Source of the DNA: Candidatus Nanosynbacter sp. BB002
GTDB taxonomy: Bacteria; Patescibacteriota; Saccharimonadia; Saccharimonadales; Saccharimonadaceae
DNA length: 32,000 nucleotides
Reading direction: 5' to 3'
Assembly (NCBI RefSeq): GCF_037013405.1
Contig: NZ_CP146064.1
Span: 390,001 to 422,000, forward strand
Below are positions 15,821 through 31,718 of the stretch, piece by piece; the first letter of the stretch is position 1; each line of letters begins with the position of its first letter. The position numbers and the translations under genes are program-made. Under the pieces are notes generated by a model that searched no databases, had not been told where the DNA came from, and was given only the letters and a program-made list of their open reading frames with translations.

Positions 15821-15849
15821 ATTATAACAGATATAGGGCTAAGCCTCAA
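15821..15849 (-). promoter_or_regulatory. candidate tig promoter TTGAGG-17-TGtTATAAT, 8 nt before the ATG
   Basis: Minus strand: TTGAGG 15849..15844 (inside the hisS 3' end), 17-nt spacer, TATAAT 15826..15821 with TG at 15829..15828, then caacagat and ATG 15812. No SD. Confidence 0.4.
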
Positions 15850-17176
15850 ATAAGGCGTCCTCATCACCATCGTATCGGTGATCAGTCACCACGCTAATCA
15901 TGCGGGTGAAATTGACTTTTTGTTCAGTTGATTCGACTAAGTTTTTCACGGTGTAGGTTTCTGATTCTAACTCTTCTGGACCCACAAACACGGCAAACGG
16001 CACTCGCTTTTTCAGAGCAGCTTTCAGTTGTTTGTCGATCTTGCGACCCGTGATGTCGAGCTCAGCAAACACCCCTTCAGAGCGTAACTTCCTGGCAAGC
16101 GCATCGGCGCCGCTCATGACTTCTGGACTAACTGGGATGATGTACACATCAGTGTGCGTGGCTAGCTCCGGTAACAACCCGTGGACTTCCAAAAATACCT
16201 GCATGGTCGTTGCACCCATACCGACACCAACCGTCGCCATCGGTTCAACACCAAACAATCCGACAAGCCCGTCGTACCGACCACCGCCAAACATAGCACG
16301 ATTGTTTTCTGGCGCATTGTCAAAGAACTCAAAAACCGTGCCAGTATAGTAGTCCAGGCCTCTCATCAATGTCACGTCAAATACCGCATTGGTCACGCCT
16401 TTTTGTCGCAGCAGGTTCATGACGGTGCGTATCTGCTGAACACTTGGACTATCGCTCAGCTCAGCTGGTAAATCATCGACGCTCTTCATGCTAATCATCT
16501 GAGCTAGTTTCGGCAGCCCTTCACGCGAGCCCTCAGCACCAAAAATTTCAATGGCTTGCTGCTTGAAGGTCTCCGGCGGAATCTTATTTTTCTTATCGAG
16601 CAGCTTTGTCATCATATTTGCGCCGATGACATCCAGCCCCAAAAATTGACCAAGGAGTTGATTGACCAGTTGGCGGTTATTTACTCGCACTGTAAACATG
16701 TCGGGGCGCGCGCCAAAGTTCAGCACTGAGCGATAACTCATCTCGATGATTTCGGCATCAGCCATGGGACCGTCCACACCAAACAGGTCGGCGTTTAGCT
16801 GCCAAAACTCACGCTCTCGCCCGCGTTGTGGGCGTTCGTAGCGCATGAAATTTGCGATCGAATACAAACGTGCTGGCACCGCAAATTCGTGTCGTCTGGC
16901 TGCCACCATGCGGGAAATTGACGGCGTCATCTCTGGACGAATGGTCACCTGCCGACCGCCACGGTCTTCAAACGCGTAGGTTTGCTCACCTGCCAATTCT
17001 TGACCTGACTTTGCCAGATAGATGTCCATGGGCTCCAGCAACGGAGCGCCGTATTCTTCATAGCCAAAACTTTCGACGGTTTTGCGCCAAACGTTAAAAA
17101 TATAATTTTGCAGACGTTTTTCCTCTGGGAAATAGTCTCGCGAACCTTTGTAACTTTGTGTTGATAAACTGCTCAT
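15839..17176 (-). CDS. hisS: histidine--tRNA ligase
   Basis: 445 aa. GSRDYFPEE...YEEYGAPLLEP...FEDRGGRQVTIRPEMT...LYSIANFMRYERPQRGREREFWQ...GGGRYDGL are class-IIa HisRS motifs. Confidence 0.95.
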   Translation of the reverse strand: MSSLSTQSYKGSRDYFPEEKRLQNYIFNVWRKTVESFGYEEYGAPLLEPMDIYLAKSGQELAGEQTYAFEDRGGRQVTIRPEMTPSISRMVAARRHEFAVPARLYSIANFMRYERPQRGREREFWQLNADLFGVDGPMADAEIIEMSYRSVLNFGARPDMFTVRVNNRQLVNQLLGQFLGLDVIGANMMTKLLDKKNKIPPETFKQQAIEIFGAEGSREGLPKLAQMISMKSVDDLPAELSDSPSVQQIRTVMNLLRQKGVTNAVFDVTLMRGLDYYTGTVFEFFDNAPENNRAMFGGGRYDGLVGLFGVEPMATVGVGMGATTMQVFLEVHGLLPELATHTDVYIIPVSPEVMSGADALARKLRSEGVFAELDITGRKIDKQLKAALKKRVPFAVFVGPEELESETYTVKNLVESTEQKVNFTRMISVVTDHRYDGDEDALFEA

Positions 17177-17185: not shown

Positions 17186-17214
17186 ATTATGTCATTATTT
17201 CTTCTATATATCAA
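17186..17214 (-). promoter_or_regulatory. candidate hisS promoter TTGATA-17-TGaCATAAT, 9 nt before the ATG
   Basis: Minus strand: TTGATA 17214..17209, 17-nt spacer, CATAAT 17191..17186 with TG at 17194..17193, then ggaactaac and ATG 17176. Confidence 0.4.
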
Positions 17215-17215
17215 T

Positions 17216-17241
17216 CAAAAACGCCGAGGCAGAACTCGGCG
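17216..17241 (-). terminator. rho-independent terminator insulating hisS from upstream (prophage-side) transcription
   Basis: Minus strand: CGCCGAG-ttctgc-CTCGGCG followed by TTTTT (stem 17241..17235 / 17228..17222, U-run 17221..17217). Confidence 0.7.
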
Positions 17242-17264
17242 CGGACAATCAAAAAATCAGAGCT

Positions 17265-17344
17265 CTACCTCGGCAACACATGCGGATGATGGAATGTGAA
17301 TGAAATCATAGGTTAATTATAGGGTATTATAGACTGTTTGTAAA
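17265..17344 (-). promoter_or_regulatory. promoter TTTACA-17-TATAAT plus a 14-codon leaderless mini-ORF (MISFTFHHPHVLPR)
   Basis: Minus strand: TTTACA 17344..17339, 17-nt spacer, TATAAT 17321..17316, 6 nt, ATG 17309, stop TAG 17267..17265. The terminator at 17216-17241 follows. Confidence 0.3.
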
Positions 17345-17496
17345 CATGTTTGTTGACAAGTACGCGAATAATTGATATATATAAATCACTGAAAAATATT
17401 ACATGATAGAGCAAACCGCTCAACCATGAATCTTGTTTTTCCAGTGATGTTAAAGGCCATTGATGGCGGTGGTTGCCGCTCATCTGAACTGTCTTC

Positions 17497-17537
17497 AGTA
17501 TAGCAAAACGCAAGCGTTCTGTCAATACGCTTGCGTT
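17497..17537 (-). promoter_or_regulatory. composite hairpin/promoter P1: TTGACA-17-TGcTATACT with the -35 in the loop of an 11-bp hairpin
   Basis: Minus strand: AACGCAAGCGT-aTTGACAga-ACGCTTGCGTT-ttgcTATACT (-35 at 17525..17520, -10 at 17502..17497, stem 17537..17527 / 17517..17507). Lies 60 nt downstream of the recombinase stop, so it may also terminate that gene. Confidence 0.5.
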
Positions 17538-17596
17538 ATAAAAATGGGCAAAATGGTGCGAAAACTGTGGAAAAGTCCGCACCATTACCTCTGTTA

Positions 17597-18463
17597 TTAT
17601 GATGTTGCGCTAAATTTCAATCTTTCAAAGCATGCCGCCATCTGTCCGTCCAATCCATGCAAATATCGCTGCGTAATTACCGCGTTTGAATGGCCGAGCA
17701 TCTCTTGCGATTCCATGAGCGTCGCCCCATTGCGTTGAATGTCTGTAGCGAACGAATGCCGCAGCGAGTGTGGGTGAAAATTGCGAAATCCCGCCAGATA
17801 AAACGGCTGCCGCATTAAATGCCGCAGCTCCTCTACACTAAGCAGTGTGCCGCTCGACTTCTGCCACAAATAGTCATCAATACGCCGACTAACGACCCAC
17901 TGTGTCAATCTTTCGCGAGCTTCTCGGCTCATATGTACCTCCCGCCGTCTGCCGCCCTTGCCAGTGAATACGATCATTCTGTCGGTGATATTCAATAGTC
18001 GCAGATTCCGCAGCTCAGTGATACGTAAGCCGCAGTCAAACGATAATTTAATCAGTAGCCACTGTATCTGATTGCAATATCCCAACACCTGCTCGATTTG
18101 CTCTCTCGTGTAGAAAACGCGGCGAATCGGCTCGGTCTCTTTTTGCTTAACAATGTGGCGAATCTTTAATTCAGGCATCTCCACGCCCATATCTCTGAAA
18201 TATCTGAACATTGCCACCACATGGCAAATTCGCGTATTGATAGTCCGACTGTTTAGCCCGCGTCGTGCCTGAGCGGCTATCCAATCGTTCACCTGCTGTG
18301 TTGTGATCTCTCCTAGTGTTTTGGCCGGCACGTTGGCCCGAAAATCCATCATCACCCAGCGTTTAGCACTCAATGTTTGGCGGCTCATCCGGCGCGTAAA
18401 CTCGCAGTACTCCAGATATTCGTCAAAAGCTCGCTCGATTGGCATAATTGTATTTTTCGTCAT
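17597..18463 (-). CDS. tyrosine site-specific recombinase (small XerC/D-like; phage integrase and/or invertase)
   Basis: 288 aa. N-terminal SAM-like core-binding region, then catalytic signature GLRITEL (Arg), HSLRHSFAT (His-x-x-Arg), LGHSN (His), QRYLH (Tyr). GGAG RBS before ATG 18463. Confidence 0.9.
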   Translation of the reverse strand: MTKNTIMPIERAFDEYLEYCEFTRRMSRQTLSAKRWVMMDFRANVPAKTLGEITTQQVNDWIAAQARRGLNSRTINTRICHVVAMFRYFRDMGVEMPELKIRHIVKQKETEPIRRVFYTREQIEQVLGYCNQIQWLLIKLSFDCGLRITELRNLRLLNITDRMIVFTGKGGRRREVHMSREARERLTQWVVSRRIDDYLWQKSSGTLLSVEELRHLMRQPFYLAGFRNFHPHSLRHSFATDIQRNGATLMESQEMLGHSNAVITQRYLHGLDGQMAACFERLKFSATS

Positions 18464-18489
18464 GATTTTAACTCCACTTAAAAAACCAG

Positions 18490-18577
18490 TTCTATATAGA
18501 ATTGCTTATAACGAACCTTAAAAGCTCAATTGTATATAGAACCCTCACATTTAATTTTCTGATAATTCTGTTATCAA
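18490..18577 (-). promoter_or_regulatory. candidate recombinase promoter (TTGATA-17-TTAAAT) with two TT(C/G)TATATAGAA palindromes downstream
   Basis: Minus strand: -35 at 18577..18572, -10 at 18554..18549. Perfect 12-bp palindrome TTCTATATAGAA at 18490-18501 and near-copy TTGTATATAGAA at 18530-18541, 40 bp apart, between the promoter and the start codon. Confidence 0.35.
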
Positions 18578-18613
18578 AAATGGGCGGTGGCGGGCGGATT
18601 TGCACTAACTTGA

Positions 18614-18638
18614 ATAAAAAATACGGCCAGACGGCCGC
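18614..18638 (-). terminator. weak rho-independent terminator
   Basis: Minus strand: CGGCC-gtct-GGCCG followed by TATTTTTTATT. Confidence 0.4.
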
Positions 18639-18703
18639 TTTCATTACGCAAAACTCCCAAATACTCGCATATATCTAGGATTATTGCATAATATTTGTAT
18701 ACA

Positions 18704-18735
18704 GGCAAACGCAAACAAGCCGCTACGCGAGCGGC
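18704..18735 (-). terminator. candidate terminator after the 125-aa gene
   Basis: Minus strand: GCCGCT-cgcgt-AGCGGC followed by TTGTTTGCGTTTG, about 20 nt after the stop at 18758. Confidence 0.4.
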
Positions 18736-18757
18736 GTCAAAATGTCAGCAGTGATTG

Positions 18758-19135
18758 CTACGTTATCAGGTTGTAGCTGTGCTTCATCTGCGCCAGCTTA
18801 TCTAATCCATCAATGTTGATCGGTAAGGCTGCCTGCTCTTGCATTTTCTGCTTGTGGCGTTCCTCTGCTGCCCTGGCCTTCGCCTGTGCGATCAGTTTGC
18901 GCAGCCAATCCACCGTCTTCGCCAGATTCTTACTTGACCAAATAAATGCGAAGTACTTGCGTGGATTACGTTTTCGTTTCGCCAATTTAATCGAATAATC
19001 GAACTCTCTCGCATAATTGATCTGTCGATTTCTAAACATCGGCAGGTAATTATCATCGGTGATTAGCTTTGTCGCCTTGCCTAATCGCTGCTGCATTTTC
19101 TGAACTCGTCGCTCGTCTATGGTTATGTTCCCCAT
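18758..19135 (-). CDS. hypothetical basic protein (125 aa)
   Basis: I prefer ATG 19135 (MGNITIDERR...) with GAGGGTAAA upstream. Lys/Arg-rich with a coiled-coil-like C-terminal half; no motif recognised. Confidence 0.55.
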   Translation of the reverse strand: MGNITIDERRVQKMQQRLGKATKLITDDNYLPMFRNRQINYAREFDYSIKLAKRKRNPRKYFAFIWSSKNLAKTVDWLRKLIAQAKARAAEERHKQKMQEQAALPINIDGLDKLAQMKHSYNLIT

Positions 19136-19273
19136 TTTACCCTCAAAATGCCATTTTGCTCTTGACAAACAAAAATAGCCTCTAAAATTGATAACAATTT
19201 TTTGAGGCCAGATACAGACAGCCCGCCCTGATTTACATCTGGGCGGGCTGAAAATCCTGTACGTTCACCGTCG

Positions 19274-19302
19274 ATTGTAGCAAATCTGCTTCATCTTGTC
19301 AA
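19274..19302 (-). promoter_or_regulatory. promoter P3: TTGACA-17-TGcTACAAT
   Basis: Minus strand: TTGACA 19302..19297, exact 17-nt spacer ending in TGc, TACAAT 19279..19274. A 10-bp hairpin (19221-19252, CAGCCCGCCC/GGGCGGGCTG) lies in the resulting 5' UTR. Confidence 0.5.
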
Positions 19303-19330
19303 CAAAAACGCCCCCATTTTCAGAGGGCGG
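19303..19330 (-). terminator. candidate terminator after the RHH gene
   Basis: Minus strand: CGCCC-(11-nt loop)-GGGCG followed by TTTTTGTT. Short stem. Confidence 0.35.
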
Positions 19331-19373
19331 AATAGGTACATGGATGTTCAAACCATGCGTTTGCAGTTTATCA

Positions 19374-19520
19374 CTATTTATTAGATTCCGCAACAGCAAC
19401 GTCAGTAACGACCAGCCGTCGTATATATTCGCTAACTGTCATATTCAACTCGGCGGCACGCTTGACGATCATCTCGTGATCGCTCTCTGAAACTTTTATG
19501 TGTATATGTTTAGTTTTCAC
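19374..19520 (-). CDS. ribbon-helix-helix (CopG/MobC-like) DNA-binding protein, 48 aa
   Basis: Below the ORF-track size cut-off. My translation from GTG 19520 (RBS AAAGG 6 nt upstream) is MKTKHIHIKVSESDHEMIVKRAAELNMTVSEYIRRLVVTDVAVAESNK. This fits the RHH pattern: beta strand (IHIKV), helix, and the G/N-x-S/T-x-SEYIR helix. Confidence 0.65.
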   Translation of the reverse strand: MKTKHIHIKVSESDHEMIVKRAAELNMTVSEYIRRLVVTDVAVAESNK

Positions 19521-19570
19521 ACTATACCTTTCTGCCCGATACGATGCCTCGGGCAGGGCTCTGTTAATAT

Positions 19571-20002
19571 TTAATAAATAGCACTGACGGTAAAATATTT
19601 CAATCCGTCGTAGCGAATTTCAGCTTCATCGTTACCACTCGATTCAATCTGCTCTACTGCGTTTCTGAGCGCCTCTCCAGCATTAAACACCTCTGCCAGC
19701 TCGTCGTCGTCATTGTAAAAGAATATAGTACCGTTATCTACTACCGCTTCATAATCCTCATATCTATCTAGCTCCTTCACCGTCTCAATGATATTCTCTA
19801 GCATAGCCTCTTCATCCAATTCGATGCTGATGTTCTCGATTGTAGCGTTCTCCGCTGTACTTCTGCTGAATCGTTTACGCATCTCTCTCTTCATAACCGT
19901 CTCAAGTTCTTCTATATCACCCCTCAAGCTCTTATCTGCTTCAAAAGTGAATTCTTGTGTTGGTTGGTCGCCCGTGTAGTACCACCCTGTAAATGTTGCC
20001 AT
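19571..20002 (-). CDS. highly acidic hypothetical protein (143 aa)
   Basis: ATG 20002 preceded by AAGAAAGGATAAGAAA. Very Asp/Glu-rich. Transcribed from P2 through a ~225-nt leader. Confidence 0.65.
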   Translation of the reverse strand: MATFTGWYYTGDQPTQEFTFEADKSLRGDIEELETVMKREMRKRFSRSTAENATIENISIELDEEAMLENIIETVKELDRYEDYEAVVDNGTIFFYNDDDELAEVFNAGEALRNAVEQIESSGNDEAEIRYDGLKYFTVSAIY

Positions 20003-20229
20003 TTTCTTATCCTTTCTTGGCGGCGGCGGTTGAGGGGCTGTTTATTTTTTAGTGTTTGTGTTTTCTAGGTTTTATTTTCTAGTTTTGATTTTTCGTTTAT
20101 TTACAATCTCCAATTTTACAGTGATTTTAATTCTGAAAAACTGAAAGGTTGATTTGAACATTTTTATACCTACTTTCTTTTGCCGCCGAATTGTTAATTG
20201 TTGCTTGGTTGCCCCTCAACCATGTCTTT

Positions 20230-20265
20230 AGTATAGCAAACGTGTTGCCGTATGTCAACACGTTT
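20230..20265 (-). promoter_or_regulatory. composite hairpin/promoter P2: TTGACA-17-TGcTATACT embedded in a 10-bp hairpin
   Basis: Minus strand: AAACGTGTTG-acatacgg-CAACACGTTT-gcTATACT (-35 at 20258..20253, -10 at 20235..20230). The downstream sequence TATACTaAAGACA matches P1 (TATACTgAAGACA). Confidence 0.55.
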
Positions 20266-20340
20266 TACCAAAAAAGTCAGAGATTTTTCGACATTTTTCA
20301 TCACCCCCGTTAAACCTGTGGAAAACTCGCAATATTACAC

Positions 20341-20712
20341 AGTATAGTCCTACCACGACACTTGTCGCCAGCAGCTCGTGGCGACCGCAGCACGTCAGAA
20401 GTCGACACCGGCATGAAATGGATTGACGGCCGCACAATTTACCAGAAGACATTTGCGATGGGTGGCCTAAAAGTTGCTGGTAAAACAACGAAACCGCATG
20501 GCATTGAAAAACTAGATATGGTTATCAATATTCGTGGTATTGCGAAAGAAGACAGTATTGGCGCAACTATCAACTTACCTCACGCTGCTGATCAACAAGC
20601 TTACACGGTGACGGTTTATGTCGACAATAATAATGTCAACATTCAAACCTACGCTGATCAGTCTGGATATAAGACCTCATTTGTCACCATACAATATGTG
20701 AAAAAAGCCTAA
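20341..20712 (+). other. silent tail-fibre C-terminal (receptor-binding) cassette A
   Basis: The frame is open from 20314. The core reads S-IVLPRH-L in this frame. There is no SD, and the only starts are a TTG inside the site flank and an internal ATG at 20413. The product, TGMKWIDGRTIYQKTF..HGIEKLDMVINIRG..NLPH..SFVTIQYVKKA, resembles a common phage fibre C-terminal domain. Its stop overlaps the fibre stop. Confidence 0.7.
20343..20360 (+). repeat. recombination-core candidate, copy A (TATAGTCCTACCACGACA)
   Basis: 18/18 identical to the minus-strand copy at 21070-21087. It is part of a 23-nt stretch (20341-20363) identical to 22119-22141. Confidence 0.9.
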
Positions 20713-21686
20713 ACAATTCCAATTGCCACCCATGAAATCCCATGCCAAGCCCCACCAAATATGCCAGTTGTTGAAGCGTTGAGTGTCGTACCGGTGTTCG
20801 TAACAACGCCAGACTCAATATTCAGTCCACTGCCGATCACCTGATTAAATTCGCTGATACTGGTAGCTTTGCCGCCTGTCTTGTAGCCAATTAAGGTCGG
20901 TGACATTGAAAACACCTGCTTGAATTGCTTTGGAAAAACAACAGGCACTGGCTGTCTTTTCGTGCTATTTCCCCAGAATTGCACCCAGCCAGTTTGCACT
21001 AAGATATTGCCAGTAACGCTCTGGCTGACACCGTCAGCACTGAATGCTAACAGAGCTGATGAGCTGAGATGTCGTGGTAGGACTATATCATTGCCAAGTG
21101 CGTCAGAGCCAATCACGCCGTTTTTGAACATTTCAGCCCTGTTAATCCGTCCATCAGCCAACGTGGCTGGATTACGCCTATCAGTGATGACAGAGTCGAG
21201 AATTGTCGTCGTGCCAGCGTTTACGCGTATCTCAGCGATGACTTCATATGGATTAGACGCACCAATCTTCGCCTTGATCTGCGATGGCGTTGGTGCGCTT
21301 GGGTTAGTCGCTGGCGTGCCTGGAACGACAACGGCCTTTGTGCGATTCTCGTTGTTAGCGACGGCTTGCGACGCAGCCACGTTTGTGTCGATGTAAATCA
21401 CCACCGCGTCAATTCGCGGATTGGCGCTGTTTGCCGTGGTGACACTCGCTTGAACTGGCTGCGTACTCAAGTTGCTCACTGGAAACGTTGCCGACATAGC
21501 GTCACGCACCAGTAGATCGTCAGGTATACCATTCTCCCCGCCGATCAGCACATTCATGCCGACAGGGCTGGCTTGACGCACTCTAAAGCCGCTAATCCAC
21601 GAGCCGACAAAAGCATTTCCGAGTGCGTGGAATAGTGCGCTATCAGTAGTGCGGCCACCGTTGCTATTAGGAAAACCTAGCGCCAT
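20709..21686 (-). CDS. tail fibre / receptor-binding protein (constant residues 1-~206 plus currently joined variable end)
   Basis: 325 aa. The N-terminal half (..GFRV..MNVLIGGENG..NPRIDAVVIYID..VVPGTPATNPSAP..ILDSVITDRR) matches a pattern I associate with siphophage fibre/RBP N-domains. The C-terminal end resembles cassette B. Contains the core at codons 200-206. Confidence 0.8.
   Translation of the reverse strand: MALGFPNSNGGRTTDSALFHALGNAFVGSWISGFRVRQASPVGMNVLIGGENGIPDDLLVRDAMSATFPVSNLSTQPVQASVTTANSANPRIDAVVIYIDTNVAASQAVANNENRTKAVVVPGTPATNPSAPTPSQIKAKIGASNPYEVIAEIRVNAGTTTILDSVITDRRNPATLADGRINRAEMFKNGVIGSDALGNDIVLPRHLSSSALLAFSADGVSQSVTGNILVQTGWVQFWGNSTKRQPVPVVFPKQFKQVFSMSPTLIGYKTGGKATSISEFNQVIGSGLNIESGVVTNTGTTLNASTTGIFGGAWHGISWVAIGIV
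21070..21087 (-). repeat. recombination-core candidate, copy F (inside the fibre gene)
   Basis: Minus strand: gaT ATA GTC CTA CCA CGA CAt = D-IVLPRH. Inverted relative to copies A and B. Confidence 0.9.
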
Positions 21687-21688
21687 AG

Positions 21689-21991
21689 TTATTTTTCGTC
21701 AGCGCTTTCAGCCTCAGCCTCGGTGGTGTCGACCGTCTCGACCTCAGCATCATCATTGGTATTTTCAACTTCTGGCTCAACAACCTCGTCAGCAGACTCT
21801 ACTACTGGTGTCTCTGGCTCAGTAGGCTCGCTTTCAGCCTCAGCCTCGGTGGTGTCGACCGTGCCTTTGGCTGCCGAAATACTCACGTACGGCCCGCTGT
21901 GTGCATCGCCTTTGACGAAAATATAATAGCCGTCAACTGTTCGACGAATCTCGCCGCCCTTATAATTCTGTACTTTTTCAGTGTTTTCCAT
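21689..21991 (-). CDS. acidic hypothetical protein (100 aa) with a repeated TVDTTEAEAES tail
   Basis: ATG 21991 preceded by AGGAGGATTCAT. 34-bp direct repeat at 21703-21736 and 21829-21862. Stop lies 2 nt before the fibre ATG. Confidence 0.65.
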   Translation of the reverse strand: MENTEKVQNYKGGEIRRTVDGYYIFVKGDAHSGPYVSISAAKGTVDTTEAEAESEPTEPETPVVESADEVVEPEVENTNDDAEVETVDTTEAEAESADEK

Positions 21992-22118
21992 ATGAATCCT
22001 CCTGATTATAAATGTACAGATTAGGCGATTTGACATTATTTGCCGTGGAAAATATAGCGGTACTCTTTATATAGGCGAATAACGATTCTTTTGAGTATAA
22101 TAAACATATTCTAATTAT

Positions 22119-22502
22119 AGTATAGTCCTACCACGACACTTAAAATGGTCAGACTTCATTCAGGCGAAACGAGACAGCACTAACCAGCCAGTTGAACCTG
22201 TCATTTTTCAGTATGGTCGAGCAAGAGTAGTAGCCCCAGCCGACACAATAGAGACTACGACGACCGTTACGTTTCCGAAAATATTTAAGAGTGGAACGGT
22301 ACCGACTGTTATTTGCACCTACAACGGATACGGCAACAGTAGTGATCCATGGACGGACGCACCAAATCCGTCTTGGGCTGGTGCGGCAATTGGGGCGGTT
22401 AGTATCACAAACTCATCATTTGCGGCGAGATGTCGCCGCTTTGATGGTGCTATGCTGAGAGGTTCATATTACTTCAGCTGGATCGCAATTGGCGCAGTCT
22501 AA
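22119..22502 (+). other. silent tail-fibre C-terminal cassette B (paralogue of the expressed end)
   Basis: My translation shows a frame open over 22104-22499 (132 codons) with no ATG/GTG/TTG before codon 117, so it is absent from the ORF track. It reads ..SIVLPRHLKWSDFIQ..VTFPKIFKSGTVPTVICTY..YYFSWIAIGAV*. The expressed end reads ..VVFPKQFKQVFSMSPTLIGY..HGISWVAIGIV*. Confidence 0.65.
22121..22138 (+). repeat. recombination-core candidate, copy B
   Basis: Same 18-nt core. The 23-nt stretch 22119-22141 is identical to 20341-20363. Confidence 0.9.
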
Positions 22503-22526
22503 ACTATAAAGAAATCCTTTCTAGTT

Positions 22527-22561
22527 CAAAAACCGCCTCGGAGCTTATCGAGGCGGTTTTC
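22527..22561. terminator. bidirectional rho-independent terminator
   Basis: AAAAAA-CCGCCTCG-gagcttat-CGAGGCGG-TTTT. Lies between the holin stop (22582, -) and the cassette B stop (22502, +). Confidence 0.8.
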
Positions 22562-22581
22562 AGTTGTTCGGAAATACCGAA

Positions 22582-22839
22582 CTACTCAACGGCCTGCTGC
22601 ATCTGACGCACTAACTCAATGACTATCGTCTTAGCGGCCGACAGTCCAGCAGCAATCGCAGATAGCGTAGTCGCTAGTGCCAGTGCCCACAACTCGCGCC
22701 AACTTGCCGCAAACAACAAATTTACTAGGTTTACGCCTGCTAATAAGAATGTTGCGATAAACGTTTGTAGAAACGTCCACAATGCTCGAGCAACAACATC
22801 TTTGTAGTTGATATTTTTCAGTGCTTCTAGTGATTTCAT
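22582..22839 (-). CDS. holin (two-TM, small)
   Basis: 85 aa with two hydrophobic helices (ALWTFLQTFIATFLLAGVNLV; ELWALALATTLSAIAAGLSAA) and a charged C-terminus. AGGAGAG RBS. Position in the lysis cassette. Confidence 0.65.
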   Translation of the reverse strand: MKSLEALKNINYKDVVARALWTFLQTFIATFLLAGVNLVNLLFAASWRELWALALATTLSAIAAGLSAAKTIVIELVRQMQQAVE

Positions 22840-22851
22840 GCTATTCTCTCC

Positions 22852-23172
22852 TTACATTAATCCAAAACTGCTGCTGGAGCCGCTCTTTAGCAGACAGTTT
22901 TCGGTATTTTGAATTTTAGCGTCTATTGTTCGCTGGATTACAGCACCTCGCGGGTCTTTCAGCGGCTCGCCCGTTTTGGGATCGTGCCATCTACTCAAGC
23001 CTGGGACGCTGTGCGCGTCCACTAAGCATTGCAGGCAATCGTTGTATGTCGAGCCTGCTGGCATCTCTGGCGTGGTCTCGCCAACGTGCAGCGTCACGCA
23101 GCCGCAAGCTTTGCACTCGCGGAAGTACAGGCTCGACTTCGTGATGGTGATTTTTGATAAATCTGGCGCCAT
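22852..23172 (-). CDS. hypothetical CxxC...CxxC (zinc-ribbon-like) protein, 106 aa
   Basis: I prefer ATG 23172 (MAPDLSK...), which overlaps the endolysin stop as TAATG. Contains CKACGC and CLQC cysteine pairs. Confidence 0.5.
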   Translation of the reverse strand: MAPDLSKITITKSSLYFRECKACGCVTLHVGETTPEMPAGSTYNDCLQCLVDAHSVPGLSRWHDPKTGEPLKDPRGAVIQRTIDAKIQNTENCLLKSGSSSSFGLM

Positions 23173-24155
23173 TATGGTAACCTCAAAACGTCGCCTGGGT
23201 GGATTAGATCCGGGTTTGGCAGGTTGTTGATTCGAGCCAGCGTCTGCCAGTCTGTGCCGTGCGCAGCCGCGATAGTGCTGAGGTTGTCGCCCCATTGAAC
23301 CGTCACGGTTCGTTCGGCCGGCGCGCTTCCGCCTGGTACTCGCAATACTTGGCCTGCATAAATCAGGTTTGGATTCTGAATGCCGTTGATGGCTGCTAAG
23401 TAGTGGTAATCTACGCCATATTTTTCGGCGATCTCACTCAGCGTATCGTTTGGCTGAACTGTGTATGTCGGCTGTGGCTCTGGTGTTGGTTGTGGGTTAG
23501 CAATTTGCCCGCTGTGTCCAGCTGGTGCTGGCGCTCCGCCTGCGTACTTATCCCACGCTTCAGCGTCGCCGTAAAACTCGTTACAGTCGAGGTTTCCACC
23601 CCAGCCGTCAAGTCGGCCGCTTGATGTCCACTGCCACATTGCGTAGCCGTCCCAGTATTTGACGCTTGGCGGCGTGCCGGCCTGGCTCATGTCGTAGTTG
23701 AAGTCGACGGCCATGTCGCGATACTTCGCCACCCAAAGTCCATAGTCAGCGCCAGCGACGCTGCTCCAATCGTGGCTGTTTACCACGCTCTCTGACATGT
23801 AGATGAGCGGCTTCACTCCTGTGCGTTCCTGTACACGGTCGAGCCAGCGCTTTGCCCACGCTACGTCGCCAACATTTCCGCCGTCTTCCCAGTCGAGAAT
23901 AAGCATAGCGTGCTTAATGTATCCCTGGATATTGTCGACGAAAAAGTCAGCTTCAGCGATTGCGCCATTGCTGCCATTTCTCGCAAAGTGATAAACACCG
24001 AGCTTTTTGCCGGCTGCGGCCGCCTGCTGATAATGCTCGTCGCAATTTGGGTTGACGTAGTCAGTTCCCTCGGTTGCTTTTACTATTACGAAATCTGCCG
24101 GGATTTTACCGGCGTCCAAGCCAGCCTGCCAGCTTGATATGTCGATGCCTTTCAT
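23172..24155 (-). CDS. endolysin: GH25 muramidase plus two LysM repeats
   Basis: MKGIDISSWQ..DFVIVKATEG..GVYHFAR..LILDWE is the GH25 pattern. Two C-terminal LysM units (YTVQPNDTLSEIAEKYGV...VLRVP; VTVQWGDNLSTIAAAHGT...VLRLP). AGGAGG before ATG 24155. Confidence 0.9.
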   Translation of the reverse strand: MKGIDISSWQAGLDAGKIPADFVIVKATEGTDYVNPNCDEHYQQAAAAGKKLGVYHFARNGSNGAIAEADFFVDNIQGYIKHAMLILDWEDGGNVGDVAWAKRWLDRVQERTGVKPLIYMSESVVNSHDWSSVAGADYGLWVAKYRDMAVDFNYDMSQAGTPPSVKYWDGYAMWQWTSSGRLDGWGGNLDCNEFYGDAEAWDKYAGGAPAPAGHSGQIANPQPTPEPQPTYTVQPNDTLSEIAEKYGVDYHYLAAINGIQNPNLIYAGQVLRVPGGSAPAERTVTVQWGDNLSTIAAAHGTDWQTLARINNLPNPDLIHPGDVLRLP

Positions 24156-24178
24156 TTGACCTCCTATTAAATTAATCA

Positions 24179-24484
24179 TTACGGTTTATTCACGACTCTC
24201 ACAATCAAATCGACCATAAAGCCAATCACGGTAATTACCGCTGTCATTACGCCAGCACCAATCTTGGCTTCGCTCTTGGACAGATAATTGCCTTGCATCA
24301 GTTCCACGCGGGCTATCAGGGCTTTAAGCTCCTCGGCATCGGCTTTCGATTCAGCTAGCTGTTTGACCGACTCCGCCAGCCGCGACACATTATCGTTTAT
24401 TGAGCTCAGCCGCTCATTCAGTACGTCGTCGCGCGCAGTCATCATGATGCCCAATTCCCGCACCGTTTTGGGTGTTTGATTCAT
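24179..24484 (-). CDS. XhlA-like lysis-associated membrane protein (coiled coil plus C-terminal TM)
   Basis: 101 aa from ATG 24484 (AAGGAA RBS). Coiled-coil N-terminal part and one C-terminal TM helix (GAGVMTAVITVIGFMVDLIV). Immediately upstream of the endolysin, as PBSX xhlA is relative to xlyA. Confidence 0.5.
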   Translation of the reverse strand: MNQTPKTVRELGIMMTARDDVLNERLSSINDNVSRLAESVKQLAESKADAEELKALIARVELMQGNYLSKSEAKIGAGVMTAVITVIGFMVDLIVRVVNKP

Positions 24485-24532
24485 CGATTCCTTGTCTCGT
24501 TTATCGTTCATTCTCACTTACCACATTACAGA

Positions 24533-24955
24533 TTAGACATATTCAACCCTCAGCTCACCGTCAGACGTAGCGAACGCGTAGATTTTGAACGTGTTGCTGC
24601 CGAGGTCGACTAAAAAATCTGATATATTTAGCCACGTCTGTACACCGCCATTGCTTCGCCGGCGTTGGAAATAGCGAGTAACATCCTCTAGTCTTGAACC
24701 ATGGCTGCTGCGCCTGCCAACCATCAGCTTAAAAACCATACCCGACTGATACGTACTAGCTTTCGGCGTAAATACGATTTTGAACCGCCTCAGAAACATT
24801 GCGTCACGCTTGTCGATCGCCGCTTCTAACTTGATACGAAATACCTGCACGCCGTCAGCACCAACACGCTGTGCTGCTTTCATCTCGGTAATTTCACGCT
24901 CGCACCGCGTAATGATTCGCGCCATCGTCTCGCCGTCTATCTCTTGAATCCTCAT
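24533..24955 (-). CDS. small tail/baseplate-associated protein, paralogue 3 (140 aa)
   Basis: Shares an N-terminal helix plus the motif EMKAAQRVGADGVQVF with the two upstream genes. ATGA overlap with its neighbour. Confidence 0.6.
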   Translation of the reverse strand: MRIQEIDGETMARIITRCEREITEMKAAQRVGADGVQVFRIKLEAAIDKRDAMFLRRFKIVFTPKASTYQSGMVFKLMVGRRSSHGSRLEDVTRYFQRRRSNGGVQTWLNISDFLVDLGSNTFKIYAFATSDGELRVEYV

Positions 24956-25407
24956 AACATCCTACTTTCGATTGTCAAATCGACACTAGTATTTGCCACC
25001 ACGGCACACTTCATCTGCGCCAGCACGCTACTCAGTCCCTTTCGCACGTACGCGTATGCAAACCATCTGCGAACATGCCGCGCGTCGCTTGATATCGGTA
25101 TTATGTCAATACGCGTCGGTGCTGCACTGTTTATCAGTATCTTGTCAATAATCAGATCAGCCAACAAGAACGTCTTGTCCTTTCTTGCCGTCGCCGTAAT
25201 GATAAATGGCACGCCAGAGGCTTGCTGCTGTCCGCCAACCACGTTAGCAACCTGATTGAAATCCCACTCGTCGTTGCTGGCACTCTCGTAAAACACCAGC
25301 CCGTTTGATGCCATCACCTGGCTAGTCTTGAGGTCGCGGATGTTGCGATCAAGTGACGTTAGAATGTCTGTCAGCTGGTTTTCAGGCAACATACTCAGCC
25401 GATTCAT
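24952..25407 (-). CDS. small tail/baseplate-associated protein, paralogue 2 (151 aa)
   Basis: Motif RDLKTSQVMASNGLVFYE. ATGA overlaps on both sides. Confidence 0.6.
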   Translation of the reverse strand: MNRLSMLPENQLTDILTSLDRNIRDLKTSQVMASNGLVFYESASNDEWDFNQVANVVGGQQQASGVPFIITATARKDKTFLLADLIIDKILINSAAPTRIDIIPISSDARHVRRWFAYAYVRKGLSSVLAQMKCAVVANTSVDLTIESRML

Positions 25408-25904
25408 AGCAGGCTCGCTTTCATGCCGAACGACCCCTTATCTGTCCCCAGAAAAATACACTTGGCGTAGACGTATTTTGTTTGCCCTGGTCGTGGACTG
25501 TCGATAGTGGCGCTGGCACTAAACACCAGTTGATATGGCAACTCTAACTTATTGATATCTGGCGAACTCTGATCAATAATACTGCCAGTAATCGGCTGCG
25601 CGCCCGCTAGCGTGTCAGGGTTATCGCCGATATAAAACTGTGGCAAAAACAGCACGTATGGCCACTGCTGTTTACGTGCGGTGAATGTTGTTTCAATTTT
25701 GATTATTCTTCCACTAGGAAAAGTCGGGTCATATGTGACAGGTATCATCGCGTCGTATTCCTGTACACTTTTCGTTTCGTAATAAATAATGCCAGAGTTG
25801 TTGCTGGTTCTCTGCGCCGCTTTCATTTGCTCAGAGGCACGCAGTAGCGCCCGCAATCTGCCAATGGCACGCCGCTCCTCCACTAGATTCAATCGTCCGC
25901 TCAT
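25404..25904 (-). CDS. small tail/baseplate-associated protein, paralogue 1 (166 aa)
   Basis: Motif EQMKAAQRTSNNSGIIYYE. ATGA overlap with the Tal-like gene. Confidence 0.6.
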   Translation of the reverse strand: MSGRLNLVEERRAIGRLRALLRASEQMKAAQRTSNNSGIIYYETKSVQEYDAMIPVTYDPTFPSGRIIKIETTFTARKQQWPYVLFLPQFYIGDNPDTLAGAQPITGSIIDQSSPDINKLELPYQLVFSASATIDSPRPGQTKYVYAKCIFLGTDKGSFGMKASLL

Positions 25905-26989
25905 AAGTCGTAATTATCCAGCGTTAGAGTTATTTCCTCGCTCATGTTCTCATCAACTTTCACTGACAGCTGTTCAATACGATAGTAGCCGCTTAGTGGG
26001 CAAGATGAATACTTATTTTGCTCAACTACGATACGGTCGCCCACGCCGATGCTGTTCAAGTCAAACTGCGTCCCGCGCACTGTGACGCGCGGCAGGTCGA
26101 CCAGGCGACTCATCACGGCAACATCAGCCTCGCAATGCCCCGCCAACGTCGATAGGTTCTTGATGCTATTGTATAGCTGCACTTTTTCGCGCAGGATAAA
26201 CTCCTGCTGGCTCAATACATCCTCAGCACTATAGCGGATTGTCTCCTCACCCATACCAGAGGCCTTGCCTATGATGTTGTTGTACAGGTTTGCCCCAGAT
26301 TGCGGCAGCTCCATACGAATCGCACCGATACCCAAGCCGTCATCAGGATAATGTACCACTACATCTGGCCGTTCGTTGCCCAGTGTCTGAAACGTCTCGA
26401 ACTTGCGGTCGTAGGTGAAACGGAAGTCAAATTTGCCGTCCTGCAAGTTCGTTAGCGACACCAGCGCATCTTTGGCGTTGATATCCTCCCAGTCGTCCAT
26501 TCTGTCGCGTTGTATGCCGGTGCGGTACTGCCTGCTACCTCTAGTGATGCCGACGTCGCCGTTCGGGCGATTCTGCGCCTCCTGAATGACGCCCCAGGCA
26601 ATGTCCGTAGTTTCAATACCTTTCCAGCGGCCGTTCAAGTATCGCGCGTCAATCAGATTCAAGTAGCCGTCGCACTGCACCAACACTCGTGCATTGTCGG
26701 TATTCAGGTTGCGGTTCGCTTCCACCGCTACCGAGCCAAACAGATACTCGCCATTACGCTTGATTTTGATGTCGCTCACCCACGGCTTTAGAATCGTGTT
26801 TGGGTCTTCGCTAATCCGCCGACACTTCTCCTCCCAGTCTGGCATTGACATGTTAAAGTCTAGCGACTCTACGCCGTTTCGCGTCATGCTCCAGTCGAGG
26901 TCTTGGCAAAGTCTGGTGATGTCGGCTACCTTTGTTTTGCCACGATGCCATAGCTCGATAGTGTAGCGTGGTGGTACGTATTCATCCAT
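25901..26989 (-). CDS. Tal-like tail tip/baseplate hub protein (362 aa, short form)
   Basis: Immediately downstream of Dit. Size and position fit a Tal N-terminal (gp27-like) module. I prefer ATG 26989 (MDEYVPPRY...), which overlaps the Dit stop as TAATG. Confidence 0.6.
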   Translation of the reverse strand: MDEYVPPRYTIELWHRGKTKVADITRLCQDLDWSMTRNGVESLDFNMSMPDWEEKCRRISEDPNTILKPWVSDIKIKRNGEYLFGSVAVEANRNLNTDNARVLVQCDGYLNLIDARYLNGRWKGIETTDIAWGVIQEAQNRPNGDVGITRGSRQYRTGIQRDRMDDWEDINAKDALVSLTNLQDGKFDFRFTYDRKFETFQTLGNERPDVVVHYPDDGLGIGAIRMELPQSGANLYNNIIGKASGMGEETIRYSAEDVLSQQEFILREKVQLYNSIKNLSTLAGHCEADVAVMSRLVDLPRVTVRGTQFDLNSIGVGDRIVVEQNKYSSCPLSGYYRIEQLSVKVDENMSEEITLTLDNYDL

Positions 26990-27876
26990 TACGCAACTCC
27001 CGTGTAGCCGTTGTACCACTCGACGATAGCTGTGCCAGTATCAGCACTGTTCGAGGTATTGAAAATCAGCTCATTTAGCCCTGGCACTAAACGCCAGTAT
27101 TGGCTGCTGGTGAGGTTGTTATCGATACCTACCCCATTTAGCGTCACTTCTCGGTTGTATGTATCAAATACGATTGTGTCGCTGTCTGTCGTGCTGATAT
27201 TTAGTGCCAATATTTCGCCAGTTGTCTGGTTGGACACGGTCGGATTGGTGACTTTGCCAGTAATTGTGATTGTTGGCCAGACGTACGTATTGCCGTCGTT
27301 GATGGCGTGGTTCACTCCTCCGCCGGCCACCCAGTGCAAGCCGTCACGCTCCCAAAGCAATCCCGTAGGGCTCCACAATAAACCACCGTCACGCGGTCGC
27401 TCGAGCGTAACTCTCTGTGCTGCACCGTCAGTGTAGTCGTACATTCGCGGATCGCCCGCTACTAGCTCGATGTCATAGTCGGCAATGAGCGGCCACTCAA
27501 TCTTTGGATCAAGAGGCTGTGTCAGCTTGGTAATAGTCTGATAAACGCGTCCAGTTGGCGTGAATAGCTGCACCCGCAACTTGTCACGGATCTTGATGGT
27601 TCTAGCGATTTTTGCCATCTCGGCGTGCATTTCGGCCAATTTTCCGTCATGCTCCACCAACACGAAAAAGCTCAATGGTATTTGTCGCACGCCGTAAAAC
27701 TGCTCATCTACACTACCGCCATCGGCACCAGAAAACACATATTGGCTGTTGCGAACATCGGGGTCACCAAAGCCCTTCAGTGGCGGTGTTAGGTGGGATA
27801 GCCCCTGTTTGCTGCCCGCCAGAAATACACTCTCGTTAGTGCGCATGTTGGTAATTTGCACGTCATAGGTTCTCAT
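26989..27876 (-). CDS. distal tail protein (Dit)
   Basis: 295 aa, directly after the tape measure. Call rests on position, size and siphophage synteny. RBS GAGGAGGGG inside the TMP 3' end. Confidence 0.65.
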   Translation of the reverse strand: MRTYDVQITNMRTNESVFLAGSKQGLSHLTPPLKGFGDPDVRNSQYVFSGADGGSVDEQFYGVRQIPLSFFVLVEHDGKLAEMHAEMAKIARTIKIRDKLRVQLFTPTGRVYQTITKLTQPLDPKIEWPLIADYDIELVAGDPRMYDYTDGAAQRVTLERPRDGGLLWSPTGLLWERDGLHWVAGGGVNHAINDGNTYVWPTITITGKVTNPTVSNQTTGEILALNISTTDSDTIVFDTYNREVTLNGVGIDNNLTSSQYWRLVPGLNELIFNTSNSADTGTAIVEWYNGYTGVA

Positions 27877-27878
27877 AT

Positions 27879-30023
27879 CTAGCCCCTCCTCATCTGCTGC
27901 ACCAAGCTGCGGTTATACTGGTCAACGTCGATGCCGTTGGTGAGGTTGACGGTTTGGTTGATTTGAGGTGTATTGCCGCTAGATGATGTGCCAGTACCTC
28001 TCTCGTTCATAGAGTTCTTCAAGAACTGACTCAGCTTACTCAGTGGGATAACGGCCTCCGGCTCACTACCCTCACCAATCATGGCTAGGGTTGCTTTTGT
28101 AGCGATGCCGCCCTCTGCAAGTTGCGGAATATTGAGGTTCGGTATTTTTGGAATATGGACGCCAGGAATAGCGTTGATAATACCTGTCGCCCAGTTTATC
28201 GAGTTGATAAATCCGTTAATCATTCCAGAAACAAAGCCTAGCACACCATTTATGGCACCTCTGAACGCCCCGCCGATAGCATTGCCTATAGACACACCTA
28301 CGCTACCAAAAATACCAACCACACCGTTCCAGATACCTCTGAACCAGCCCGCTAATCCTCCAAATACACTAACTATAGCGTTCCAAGCCCCTCTGAATAC
28401 GCCACCGAACCAACCGGCTACGACGCTAAACACGCCGACTATACCGCCCCATATGCTGCCGAACCATCCGACAGCCGCTCCCCATACGCCCGCAATAAGA
28501 TTCCAGGCTCCAGTAAATATTCCGCCGAAGAACTGCACCACCGGGGTGAACGTCGCTACGATGAAATCCCAGACGGCTTGGAAGACGGCAAATATTTGAT
28601 CCTTAAACGTAAAGAACAGCCCGATGATCAGCGCCACTGGCGCAAATATCACCGCCAAAATTGTAAGCCCCCATTGCTGCAAGAAAGCTACAACGTTATT
28701 AAATACGGTTGTGATACCTATCCAAATACTACTAAAAAAGCCGACTACACCACTAACAAACCCGCTAACAACCTGACCAATAGCTCCGAACACTCCGCTG
28801 AACCAGCCAACTGCTGCGCCCCATACTGCCGTGATAGCGTTCCACGCTTGGCCAAAGATATTGAACTTTACCTGCAAAAATACCAGTGCACCGACGACTG
28901 CGGCAATTGCCACGGCTATGATTGTAAATGGATTTAGCCCGGCTACCGCATTGAATGCCGCCATGGTCGACTGCCCATTCTTTAAAGCACCGATGAAACC
29001 TCGCAAACCGATGGCACTTTTTGCTATCGTTGTCGCAAACTGACCAACTTTCATTGCTACAAACGCCGAGCCTAGCGCTGCAATGGCTGGCACAGCATTG
29101 TCTATGATGAAATTGGCAAAACCAACAATCGTTTGCTTGTTTTCTTTCAGAAAGGCGGTGAGCTTTGTGACGCCGTCACTAAACCTGGCAAATAGTCCAT
29201 TTTGGTCAACTATCAGCCCCTTTTCAGAATCCACCCGTACACCAATAATCTCTAGTCCGAGTGACCGAATCGAGCCCTGCAAGCTAATCATTCTGTTCTG
29301 AAACGTGTTTGAGAACTTGCTAATATCAAGACTTTGTGCATACTCCGCCATAGCCGCCGTGAACTCCTCGGCGCTCACCTTGCCGCCATTGATTCTACCG
29401 GCAGCTTCCTCCATAGAAATACCAAATTTCTTGGCCAAGATTGTAGTTAGCGGGATATTATTGTTGATCAGCTGTAGAGCATCTTGTCCAAATAACGCAC
29501 CACGGCTCGTAACCTGTCCAAAAACCAGTGCTAAATTCTGCAAATTTGCACCAGAAACGATAGACAGCCTACCTAGGGTATCCATGTCTGGTATGACCTG
29601 CTGTGCCGTGCGTCCATAGCCTAGTAACGTAGAGGCTGCTTTTGAAGCATCGGGAAAAGCGATTGGCTTACCAAGTACCTGATTGTACAGTTGACCAAAA
29701 ACCTTGTTGGCCGCCTCGGTTGACCCAGTGAGCGACGCCATCTGCGCTTGTGTTGTTTGCAAGCCACTGGCGAGGTCGATAAACTGTTTTGCACCAAATG
29801 TACCGCCACCGATAACCCCGGCAGCGACGATACCAAATTTTTTTATCGTATTAGCAACGCCACCAAAGCCCCGATTTAGCCCGTCAAAAAACTTGCCATA
29901 TTTTGATTGAGTCGAGTTGAGATTTCTCTCGCTCTCGTGCATCTTTTTTTGGACATTGCTCATAGCGGTGATTGCACCACTCGAATCAACACGATATGTG
30001 ATAATAATCTCACCTTGGTTCAT
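27879..30023 (-). CDS. tail tape measure protein
   Basis: 714 aa. Helical N-terminal part, long Gly/Trp/Phe-rich repetitive hydrophobic region (VWGAAVGWF occurs twice, GWFGGVFRGAWN etc.). Positioned between the chaperones and Dit. Confidence 0.85.
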   Translation of the reverse strand: MNQGEIIITYRVDSSGAITAMSNVQKKMHESERNLNSTQSKYGKFFDGLNRGFGGVANTIKKFGIVAAGVIGGGTFGAKQFIDLASGLQTTQAQMASLTGSTEAANKVFGQLYNQVLGKPIAFPDASKAASTLLGYGRTAQQVIPDMDTLGRLSIVSGANLQNLALVFGQVTSRGALFGQDALQLINNNIPLTTILAKKFGISMEEAAGRINGGKVSAEEFTAAMAEYAQSLDISKFSNTFQNRMISLQGSIRSLGLEIIGVRVDSEKGLIVDQNGLFARFSDGVTKLTAFLKENKQTIVGFANFIIDNAVPAIAALGSAFVAMKVGQFATTIAKSAIGLRGFIGALKNGQSTMAAFNAVAGLNPFTIIAVAIAAVVGALVFLQVKFNIFGQAWNAITAVWGAAVGWFSGVFGAIGQVVSGFVSGVVGFFSSIWIGITTVFNNVVAFLQQWGLTILAVIFAPVALIIGLFFTFKDQIFAVFQAVWDFIVATFTPVVQFFGGIFTGAWNLIAGVWGAAVGWFGSIWGGIVGVFSVVAGWFGGVFRGAWNAIVSVFGGLAGWFRGIWNGVVGIFGSVGVSIGNAIGGAFRGAINGVLGFVSGMINGFINSINWATGIINAIPGVHIPKIPNLNIPQLAEGGIATKATLAMIGEGSEPEAVIPLSKLSQFLKNSMNERGTGTSSSGNTPQINQTVNLTNGIDVDQYNRSLVQQMRRG

Positions 30024-30079
30024 GACGTTATTACCCTGTCTATGCTATGATTGTGGTATAAGACGAAAGGAACTCTTAA

Positions 30080-30421: not shown

Positions 30422-30423
30422 CC

Positions 30424-30720
30424 CTACCATTTTGCCTGCTTCTCCAATAAACTGATTAGCTTGTTGGCCTTTTTGCCACCAAGCGCAGCGGTAATTATCG
30501 CCATTTGCTGTAACGCCTCTTGTGCCTTGAATACACGAGCTGCTTTGATTAATAATTCAGAGTCTCCGTATGGCATCTCTACCGCCTCAGCAAACGGTAT
30601 TTGATAGTAGTAAACTAGAGCAGCAGCGGTGATTTTCTGATTCTTCAAAATATCCTTGGTCTGTTTTTCAATCAGCAAGGCTAGCTTTTCTGGATCGTAC
30701 TGCTGCTCGTGGTCTTCCAT
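30424..30720 (-). CDS. tail assembly chaperone, T-like distal ORF (98 aa)
   Basis: Lies in the -1 frame relative to the upstream chaperone, with its ATG overlapping that stop (TAATG). Position matches gpT. Confidence 0.55.
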   Translation of the reverse strand: MEDHEQQYDPEKLALLIEKQTKDILKNQKITAAALVYYYQIPFAEAVEMPYGDSELLIKAARVFKAQEALQQMAIITAALGGKKANKLISLLEKQAKW

Positions 30721-31699: not shown

Positions 31700-31718
31700 T
31701 GCTTTCTCTCCTTTTGCC

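Follow-up and report, generated by a model that had tools for sequence, protein, structure and literature searches.

A probable DNA-inversion switch joining one fibre half to three alternative tips in a prophage of Saccharibacteria

The window analysed here is a stretch of 32,000 nucleotides (nt) from the genome of Candidatus Nanosynbacter sp. BB002, an oral ultrasmall bacterium of the Saccharibacteria; positions are counted from its first letter. It includes the right end of a prophage, which derives from a temperate siphovirus-like Saccharibacteria phage. This element, about 30.8 kb in length, contains a fibre gene whose product is presumed to be the receptor-binding protein of the virion. 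Judged from its structure and its arrangements in related phages, the fibre locus very probably is a programmed site-specific DNA-inversion switch (shufflon), in which one constant half is provided with three tips. To our knowledge, phages of Saccharibacteria and of other bacteria of the candidate phyla radiation are almost unstudied.

Three sites, two segments and three fibre ends

The locus is built around an 18-nt core, TATAGTCCTACCACGACA, which has three exact matches in the window, in the order + - +. No further core match with up to 3 mismatches was found in the window, the chance expectation being 0.01. The sites delimit two adjacent segments and three alternative ends of the fibre gene:

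20343-20360, + strand: site 1, exact match to the core
20344-20712, + strand: cassette A, silent alternative 3' end; 122 codons from the site, then a stop (open frame 20326-20712)
20361-21069: invertible segment X, cassettes A and C tail to tail; in relatives it stands either way round with respect to the flanks
20709-21086, - strand: cassette C, currently expressed 3' end; 125 codons from the site
21070-21087, - strand: site 2, exact match within the fibre gene; central, common to both inversions
21088-21686, - strand: constant N-terminal half K, 199 codons of the fibre protein of 325 amino acids (aa); open reading frame (ORF) 20709-21686
21088-22120: invertible segment Y, constant half, acidic gene and 5' region; inverted in relatives
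21689-21993, - strand: ORF for an acidic 100-aa protein, real start at 21993 behind AGGAGG; co-inverted with K
21994-22120, - strand: 5' non-coding region P of the fibre operon, 127 nt, represented by an alignment of 32 distinct copies
22121-22138, + strand: site 3, exact match to the core
22122-22502, + strand: cassette B, silent and start-less alternative 3' end; 126 codons, then TAA
22529-22560: bidirectional intrinsic terminator, hairpin AAAACCGCCUCG..CGAGGCGGUUUU, 26 nt past the stop of cassette B

Identity between sites 1 and 3 extends to 23 nt, 20341-20363 being exactly repeated at 22119-22141 (repeat family D5). All three sites are read in one phase, as IVLPRH, and the expressed gene passes through site 2 in the same phase (..GNDIVLPRHLSS..). 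An initial annotation of this DNA had reported the third copy of the core, its 23/23 identity with the first and its phase (S-IVLPRH-L), and these are borne out by exact matching, by repeat search and by a translation that agrees with the expressed gene and with cassette A. The content that it had assigned to 21088-22120 (constant codons, acidic gene and 5' region) is likewise correct, with 199 constant codons in place of 200.

Cassette B lies in an open frame (22104-22502) of 132 sense codons followed by TAA, with an in-frame stop just upstream (22101-22103). The frame had been described as devoid of start codons in its first 116 codons; its sole ATG, GTG or TTG is indeed an ATG at codon 117. 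The proposal that cassette B is a diverged paralogue of the expressed end agrees with 29% identity between B and C (BLASTP E = 9e-7). The only sequence common to cassettes A and B is the site-encoded IVLPRHL, and A is unrelated in sequence to both B and C. The bidirectional terminator predicted behind cassette B is a hairpin with a fold energy of -28.1 kcal/mol (z = -4.1 versus shuffles), flanked by an A-run and a U-run. On the + strand it ends cassette B, on the - strand the lysis module.

In segment Y, the acidic gene remains upstream of K also in the flipped state. It contains a 34-nt exact direct repeat (21703-21736 and 21829-21862, family D1), encoding TEAEAES.. repeats, and two related loci (L034 and L003) have one additional unit of 126 nt in this gene. 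The assembly of one metagenome-assembled genome (MAG; L001/L003) breaks in the 34-nt repeat and not at a site, and its contig breaks were not counted as evidence of inversion. Region P moves with Y, as its context is seen next to cassettes A, B and C. The proximal 60 nt of P are nearly invariant among the 32 distinct copies, and a TATAAT abuts the site. Promoter candidates picked manually in P, such as this TATAAT, lack a -35 element and were not accepted.

Arrangements of the locus in related phages

Public collections were scanned for the core, which yielded 73 related loci, 5 from Saccharibacteria MAGs and 68 from IMG/VR contigs; a length of about 31 kb is common among the latter. The site-anchored census of these loci comprises 161 site copies. 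For comparison by BLAST, the region was divided into four blocks: L (left flank), X (20361-21069), Y (21088-22120) and R (right flank). Each state is given in the order from the recombinase to the lysis genes, with ">" and "<" giving the reading direction of a cassette and K standing at the site to which it is joined. Both X and Y were seen in both orientations relative to the flanks, and all four arrangements expected from two inversions with a common middle site occur among the 73 loci:

>A C<K >B: the window and 14 loci
>C A<K >B: 20 loci
>A C< K>B: L014, L017, L030, L031, L033, L048 and L050
>C A< K>B: L028

Segment Y is inverted relative to both flanks in every locus of the last two states and also in L057 (partial). 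The initial annotation had predicted that recombination between 21070-21087 and 22121-22138 would flip 21088-22120 and join K to cassette B, and that one constant segment could be combined with three ends by two inversions sharing the central site. Both predictions agree with arrangements that exist in related loci. The cassettes fall into families as follows:

Family A: 54 copies, 20 joined to K
Family C: 43 copies, 15 joined to K
Family B: 42 copies, 7 joined to K; an eighth K>B locus, L031, is cut by the contig end
Families D, E, F and G: few copies; D joined to K once

To the left of the site, cassettes A and C are found behind K (the end of the constant half), L (the left flank) and P (the 5' end of Y), cassette B solely behind K and P. 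None of the 42 B copies is joined to the left flank, as deletion between sites 1 and 3 would make it; this says little about deletion, since such an event would remove the fibre gene and be lost anyway. In L017, K and B form an intact open frame of 326 aa (1243-2223) with the acidic gene directly ahead. Proteins of the types K+C, K+A (for example P0082), K+B and K+E-like are present in the protein database; those of type K+B have been called in numerous public assemblies, and the K+B cluster P0061 by itself stands for 117 sequences.

Cassette B is open in 41/41 complete copies (123-126 codons), and the frameshifts or stops by which decay in relatives would be recognised are absent from all of them. 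Ratios of nonsynonymous to synonymous substitution (dN/dS) are 0.165 for A, 0.177 for B and 0.152 for C; at the level of sequence comparison, purifying selection is thus shown for all three cassettes. Since the flipped state is common and under selection, we infer that the promoter of the fibre operon travels inside Y.

Comparison of near-identical genomes shows the inversions to be recent and specific to the sites. Across 3425 nt, aligned as three blocks, L017 (K>B) and L058 (C<K) show 100.00% identity; the middle block, Y, is alone inverted, and the blocks overlap by the 19-nt site. Between L002 and L050, at an identity of 99.9-100%, both X and Y are flipped. At positions 2-15 the core is the same in 161/161 copies, third codon (synonymous) positions included, while the proportion of synonymous differences in the cassettes (pS) is about 0.52. 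Because synonymous positions of the core are invariant and about half of those in the cassettes have changed, constraint acts on the DNA and not on the peptide alone. A variant of the core (G16, CACGGCA) was considered for mapping the crossover point and proved unusable, as it occurs in several contexts.

Further, of 158 sites, 14 are no more than 130 nt away from the end of a contig, which suggests that samples contained a mixture of orientations, since an 18-nt repeat alone should not break an assembly. Many IMG/VR and MAG contigs have an edge 0-60 nt from a core site, namely the end of L018 and the starts of L013, L038, L055, L067, L070 and L004.

Individual loci deviate from the common scheme. 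In L070, a 13-nt deletion within the core (1816-1822) has removed site 3 and left cassette B intact beside it, a "locked" variant; both site 3 and cassette B are missing from L042 (~4080). L053 carries a cassette F of 144 aa (..FRATATSAQLFPNN..) in the right-hand position (1883), and the 341-aa protein P0116 consists of K joined to an E-like tip of 137 aa. Cassette F and the E-like tip indicate that the tip repertoire exceeds three across the phage family.

Two further lineages have comparable loci. Lineage 3 (L006 1559-3264; L007, L011, L036 and L073) has the same 18-nt core and the same three-site topology. Its constant part is just 50 aa long (in a 176-aa protein), its upstream gene encodes 117 aa, its cassettes are D, A', E and G, and the junctions K2-A', K2-D and K2-G were seen. 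In lineage 2 (L154-L159 and L095), the core is GGTTCAATCCTACCACAGAA, for example at 3750, 7105 and 7832 of L155 and at 2654 and 3381 of L156. Its constant part, K3, is fixed at the end of the tail operon, and a third site with a B-like cassette adjoins G2/REC (REC being the recombinase gene described below), beyond the lysis genes. The arrangement in L156/L095, a single example, resembles what would result if ~4.1 kb with the whole lysis cassette were inverted between the K3 site and the third one.

Tip fold, recombinase and prophage setting

With low confidence, the initial annotation had likened the fibre tips to H-type lectins, a guess that gains support from both profile and fold searches. 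In Pfam, the window copy of cassette B matches H_lectin (PF09458) with 9e-4 and 19.8 bits, below the gathering cut-off of 24, and Gp53-like_C with 7e-5, also sub-threshold; two relatives of the same family, P0069 and P0074, exceed the H_lectin cut-off (24 bits) with 29.6 and 31.0 bits. With 42 homologues in the alignment, the AlphaFold2 model of K+B reaches high confidence in the tip alone, where 10-residue blocks from about residue 230 onwards have a mean predicted local distance difference test (pLDDT) of 82-96. A single-sequence model of K+B was discarded (pLDDT 33). In a Foldseek search with the K+B model, SLL-2 (E = 7e-5) and the R1 pyocin fibre (1.6e-4) came top, followed by Helix pomatia agglutinin, discoidin and AP22 gp53, all top matches having a probability of 1.00; in the R1 and R2 pyocin fibres the match is to the C-terminal "foot", and several tailspike C-termini were matched as well. 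The predicted structure thus supports an H-type-lectin fold for tip B, like that of R-pyocin and phage fibre tips. C and B are two diverged H-type-lectin-like domains, and A is an unrelated fold.

The constant half K has weak PHROG matches to virion structural proteins. Its homologue K3 of lineage 2 (36% identity, E = 3e-26) directly follows the Dit, Tal and baseplate genes in the tail operon, a position that supports a tail role of K.

The remaining features that bear on the switch lie on the other side of site 1:

15839-17176: hisS, last host gene before the prophage
~17373 (17360-17400): prophage/host junction (attR), right half of the attP palindrome
17597-18463, - strand: REC, Xer-like tyrosine recombinase of 288 aa; Pfam Phage_integrase (5e-28) and SAM-like N domain
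19374-19520, - strand: NikA-like ribbon-helix-helix protein of 48 aa (Pfam 1e-9)

REC is armless: the SAM-like core-binding domain is present and an arm-binding domain is lacking. NCBIfam returns XerC-, XerA- and XerD-like matches, all below cut-off, and the best PDB matches are XerC-like 4a8e, IntI4 and XerA. Motifs of the tyrosine-recombinase active site (GLRITELRNL, GKGGRRREV, HSLRHSFAT, LGHSN and QRY) are found in the alignment to the XerC-like structure. To cover the whole phage, window positions 17373-32000 were combined with L093 2766-18837, and the resulting 38 ORFs were scanned with Pfam. REC is the sole recombinase among them; neither a serine recombinase (Resolvase/Recombinase family) nor a second integrase was found. 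As to the class of enzyme, the earlier description of the locus as shufflon-like and not Mu-like therefore holds. Three small genes separate REC from site 1, a distance of 1.9 kb, and a homologue (87-97% identical) is found at the corresponding position next to the switch in all lineage-1 loci that extend so far. A single lineage, lineage 2, has a REC homologue of 40% identity, and there the core keeps TCCTACCAC and differs in its arms (GGTTCAATCCTACCACAGAA). This coincidence of a diverged REC with altered core arms may be taken as a hint, at the sequence level, that REC is the invertase.

The intact attP is seen in L012 (5213-5268), 224 nt downstream of the REC gene; it is an imperfect palindrome with 29-nt arms, centred between GTGATTTAT and ATAAATCAC. 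Similarity of attP to the core was considered as support for an enzyme of dual function and dropped, as only trivial matches of 4-9 nt were found. Homology to free-phage contigs begins at 17368-17382 in 30 loci. As it starts at about 17373, next to hisS, the window carries the right end of the prophage.

Read along the - strand, the prophage begins with tape measure, Dit and baseplate-like genes, followed by holin, GH25-LysM endolysin, a second holin-like gene and the terminator; it continues with cassette B, segment Y, segment X, three small genes, REC and attR. The NikA-like protein is encoded by one of the three small genes between the switch and REC and could be an accessory factor, a directionality factor or a repressor. 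Two paralogous near-consensus promoters on the - strand (20230-20258 and 17497-17525; TTGACA, 17 nt, TATACT) sit within a direct repeat of 72-88% identity (17490-17577 and 20223-20328). One of them drives the gene at 19571-20002; the other aims into 17313-17585 next to attR, where there is only a dubious ORF of 90 aa. The direct repeat was considered as an att or arm site and rejected, being a duplicated consensus promoter on the - strand.

The fibre protein matches BB002 hypothetical protein V4210_02205 with 100% identity. A megablast search of 17200-24200 against GenBank phage records gave no match, and no phage of any kind is mentioned in the announcement of the BB002 genome. BB002 is a cultivated strain, grown on Actinomyces sp. 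F0337 (PMC11737083).

Interpretation and comparison with known systems

We propose that recombination of sites 1 and 2 would flip segment X and replace tip C by tip A. Recombination of sites 2 and 3 would flip segment Y, that is, the expression module consisting of the 5' region, the acidic gene and the 199-codon half, which would then read rightwards into cassette B and end at the bidirectional terminator. The constant half would thus receive tip A, C or B, presumably altering the cell-surface receptor bound by the virion; by analogy with other systems, the three tips probably differ in receptor specificity. The Xer-like REC is the likely catalyst of both inversions.

Several facts weigh against this proposal, and most of them are at the same time the strength of an alternative. 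REC is assigned as invertase by elimination only, being the one recombinase of the phage genome, while its position adjoining attP is the usual one of an integrase and makes it a candidate for that function. The attP palindrome GTGATTTATATAAATCAC is unlike the inversion core, the two being without an obvious common half-site, and three genes separate REC from the switch. The same facts would fit inversions that are real and are made by a host enzyme, such as XerC/XerD of Saccharibacteria, or by an unrecognised factor, with REC serving as integrase only. We consider this unlikely, because no other recombinase is encoded by the phage, because a REC homologue accompanies the switch wherever the locus extends far enough, and because the 40% identical homologue goes with different core arms. 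Action of one tyrosine recombinase on two types of site also has precedent: HvsR of Mycoplasma pulmonis recognises two kinds of site, and XerCD works at dif and cer as well as at phage sites. A bifunctional REC can be advanced tentatively: it may integrate the phage at a hisS-proximal attB through the attP palindrome and carry out both fibre inversions through the unrelated core, with promoter and constant half as the moving part. If so, one small armless enzyme would control both lysogeny and host range.

Other objections concern the fibre gene itself. K is without a recognised tail-fibre domain and is poorly modelled (pLDDT <50 for residues 1-207), a scan for consensus sigma-70 promoters found none on the gene strand of 21994-22120, and the gene lies downstream of the lysis genes in the lineage of the window, an unusual place for a tail gene. 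An operon between lysis genes and integrase, with its own 5' region and terminators, has the classic position of a moron. It might encode a surface or lectin protein of the host, expressed from the prophage (lysogenic conversion) and phase-varied for the benefit of the bacterium. This seems improbable to us, as no signal peptide or membrane anchor is evident in our own reading of the sequence, K3 stands immediately after Dit, Tal and baseplate genes, the PHROG matches are virion structural proteins, and the tip fold matches pyocin and phage fibre tips. It must also be said that all evidence for inversion is comparative and was gathered between separate assemblies. Arrangements specific to lineages, fixed by rare illegitimate or homologous recombination between phages (mosaicism) and not by a programmed reversible switch, would fit such evidence. 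Such an origin is highly improbable: L017 and L058 are identical save for an inversion with breakpoints in the core, close relatives show all four states in scattered fashion, synonymous positions of the core do not vary among its 161 copies, contigs often end at sites, and the repeat of just 18-23 nt is too short for efficient RecA-dependent recombination. Finally, cassette B, start-less and silent in the window, might be an unused, decaying remnant of a duplicated fibre end. The comparative sequence data already refute this, and we attach practically no credence to it: every complete copy is intact, dN/dS (about 0.18) is comparable to that of the expressed cassette, B is joined to K in 8 loci (L031, cut by its contig end, among them) and in many called proteins, and a terminator follows it. 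Loss of site 3, as in L070 and L042, is possible yet exceptional.

If an inversion switch is accepted, the locus offers a concrete receptor-binding protein of a Saccharibacteria phage, whose three tips are natural and interchangeable. Glycan receptors are indicated by the H-type-lectin-like character of two of these tips, and the presence of the switch in the prophage of a cultivated strain makes it directly testable. The switch also breaks assemblies at its sites, and one phage yields three "different" fibre proteins, which matters for virome annotation and host prediction.

Among known systems, the shufflon of R64 and other IncI plasmids (Rci, sfx sites, PilV tips) is a multiple inversion by a tyrosine recombinase whose target is a conjugative pilus adhesin. 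It resembles the present locus in its short asymmetric in-phase coding sites and in alternative C-terminal ends that are silent until joined. The constant part of pilV, however, is fixed outside the segments, whereas the constant half is invertible here. The NCBIfam matches of REC, all below family cut-offs, place it nearest to Xer. The tail-fibre inversions of Mu (Gin), P1 (Cin) and p15B (Min) are alike in that the C-terminal part of the fibre is swapped and host range changed; their enzymes, in contrast, are serine invertases with an enhancer and Fis, and the constant part lies outside the segment, while a tyrosine recombinase is found here and the constant half inside. Rin shufflons are reportedly mentioned in a study of Eggerthella lenta prophages too. 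The R64 shufflon is mentioned in PMC9881135.

According to Mavrich et al. (2018, PMC6109161), the Rin shufflon of Bifidobacterium breve and B. longum prophages was the first case of a tyrosine DNA invertase encoded by a phage and directed at a receptor-binding protein. Its phage-encoded recombinase is armless and XerD-like, as REC is armless and Xer-like; short asymmetric sites precede start-less C-terminal cassettes of the receptor-binding protein, and inversions are visible across genomes (PMC6109161). On the other hand, the constant part Rc and rin flank the invertible region, one at each end, whereas K is within segment Y; Rin phages have a separate lambda-type integrase, whereas a single recombinase stands beside attP here; and the site is the 11-bp rix, compared to an 18-nt core in phages of another host phylum, the Saccharibacteria (PMC6109161). 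A BV01-like phage of Phocaeicola vulgatus encodes an active multi-cassette shufflon in the distal part of its tail-fibre gene, flanked by a recombinase and using 10-bp motifs (PMC13596623, 2026 preprint). There the gene is fixed, with the cassettes downstream of it, and an inverting constant part is not described (PMC13596623), in contrast to the invertible constant half of the present locus. Within the library searched, literature combining Saccharibacteria with shufflon, inversion or tail fibre contained nothing on this system.

In topology, the nearest analogues are bacterial surface-antigen systems and not phages. In the vsa locus of Mycoplasma pulmonis (HvsR) and the sap locus of Campylobacter fetus, inversion moves a unique expression module, consisting of a promoter and in some cases the 5' end of the gene, to face silent cassettes on either side; sap inversion involves ~600 bp of homology and RecA. 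We know of no description of a moving expression module, comprising promoter and constant half, for a receptor-binding gene of any phage. The single recombinase, which may serve as both integrase and invertase, would extend the range of phage shufflons. What is new in comparison to known shufflons is that the constant half, the upstream gene and the 5' region are themselves invertible, in a phage with a single recombinase.

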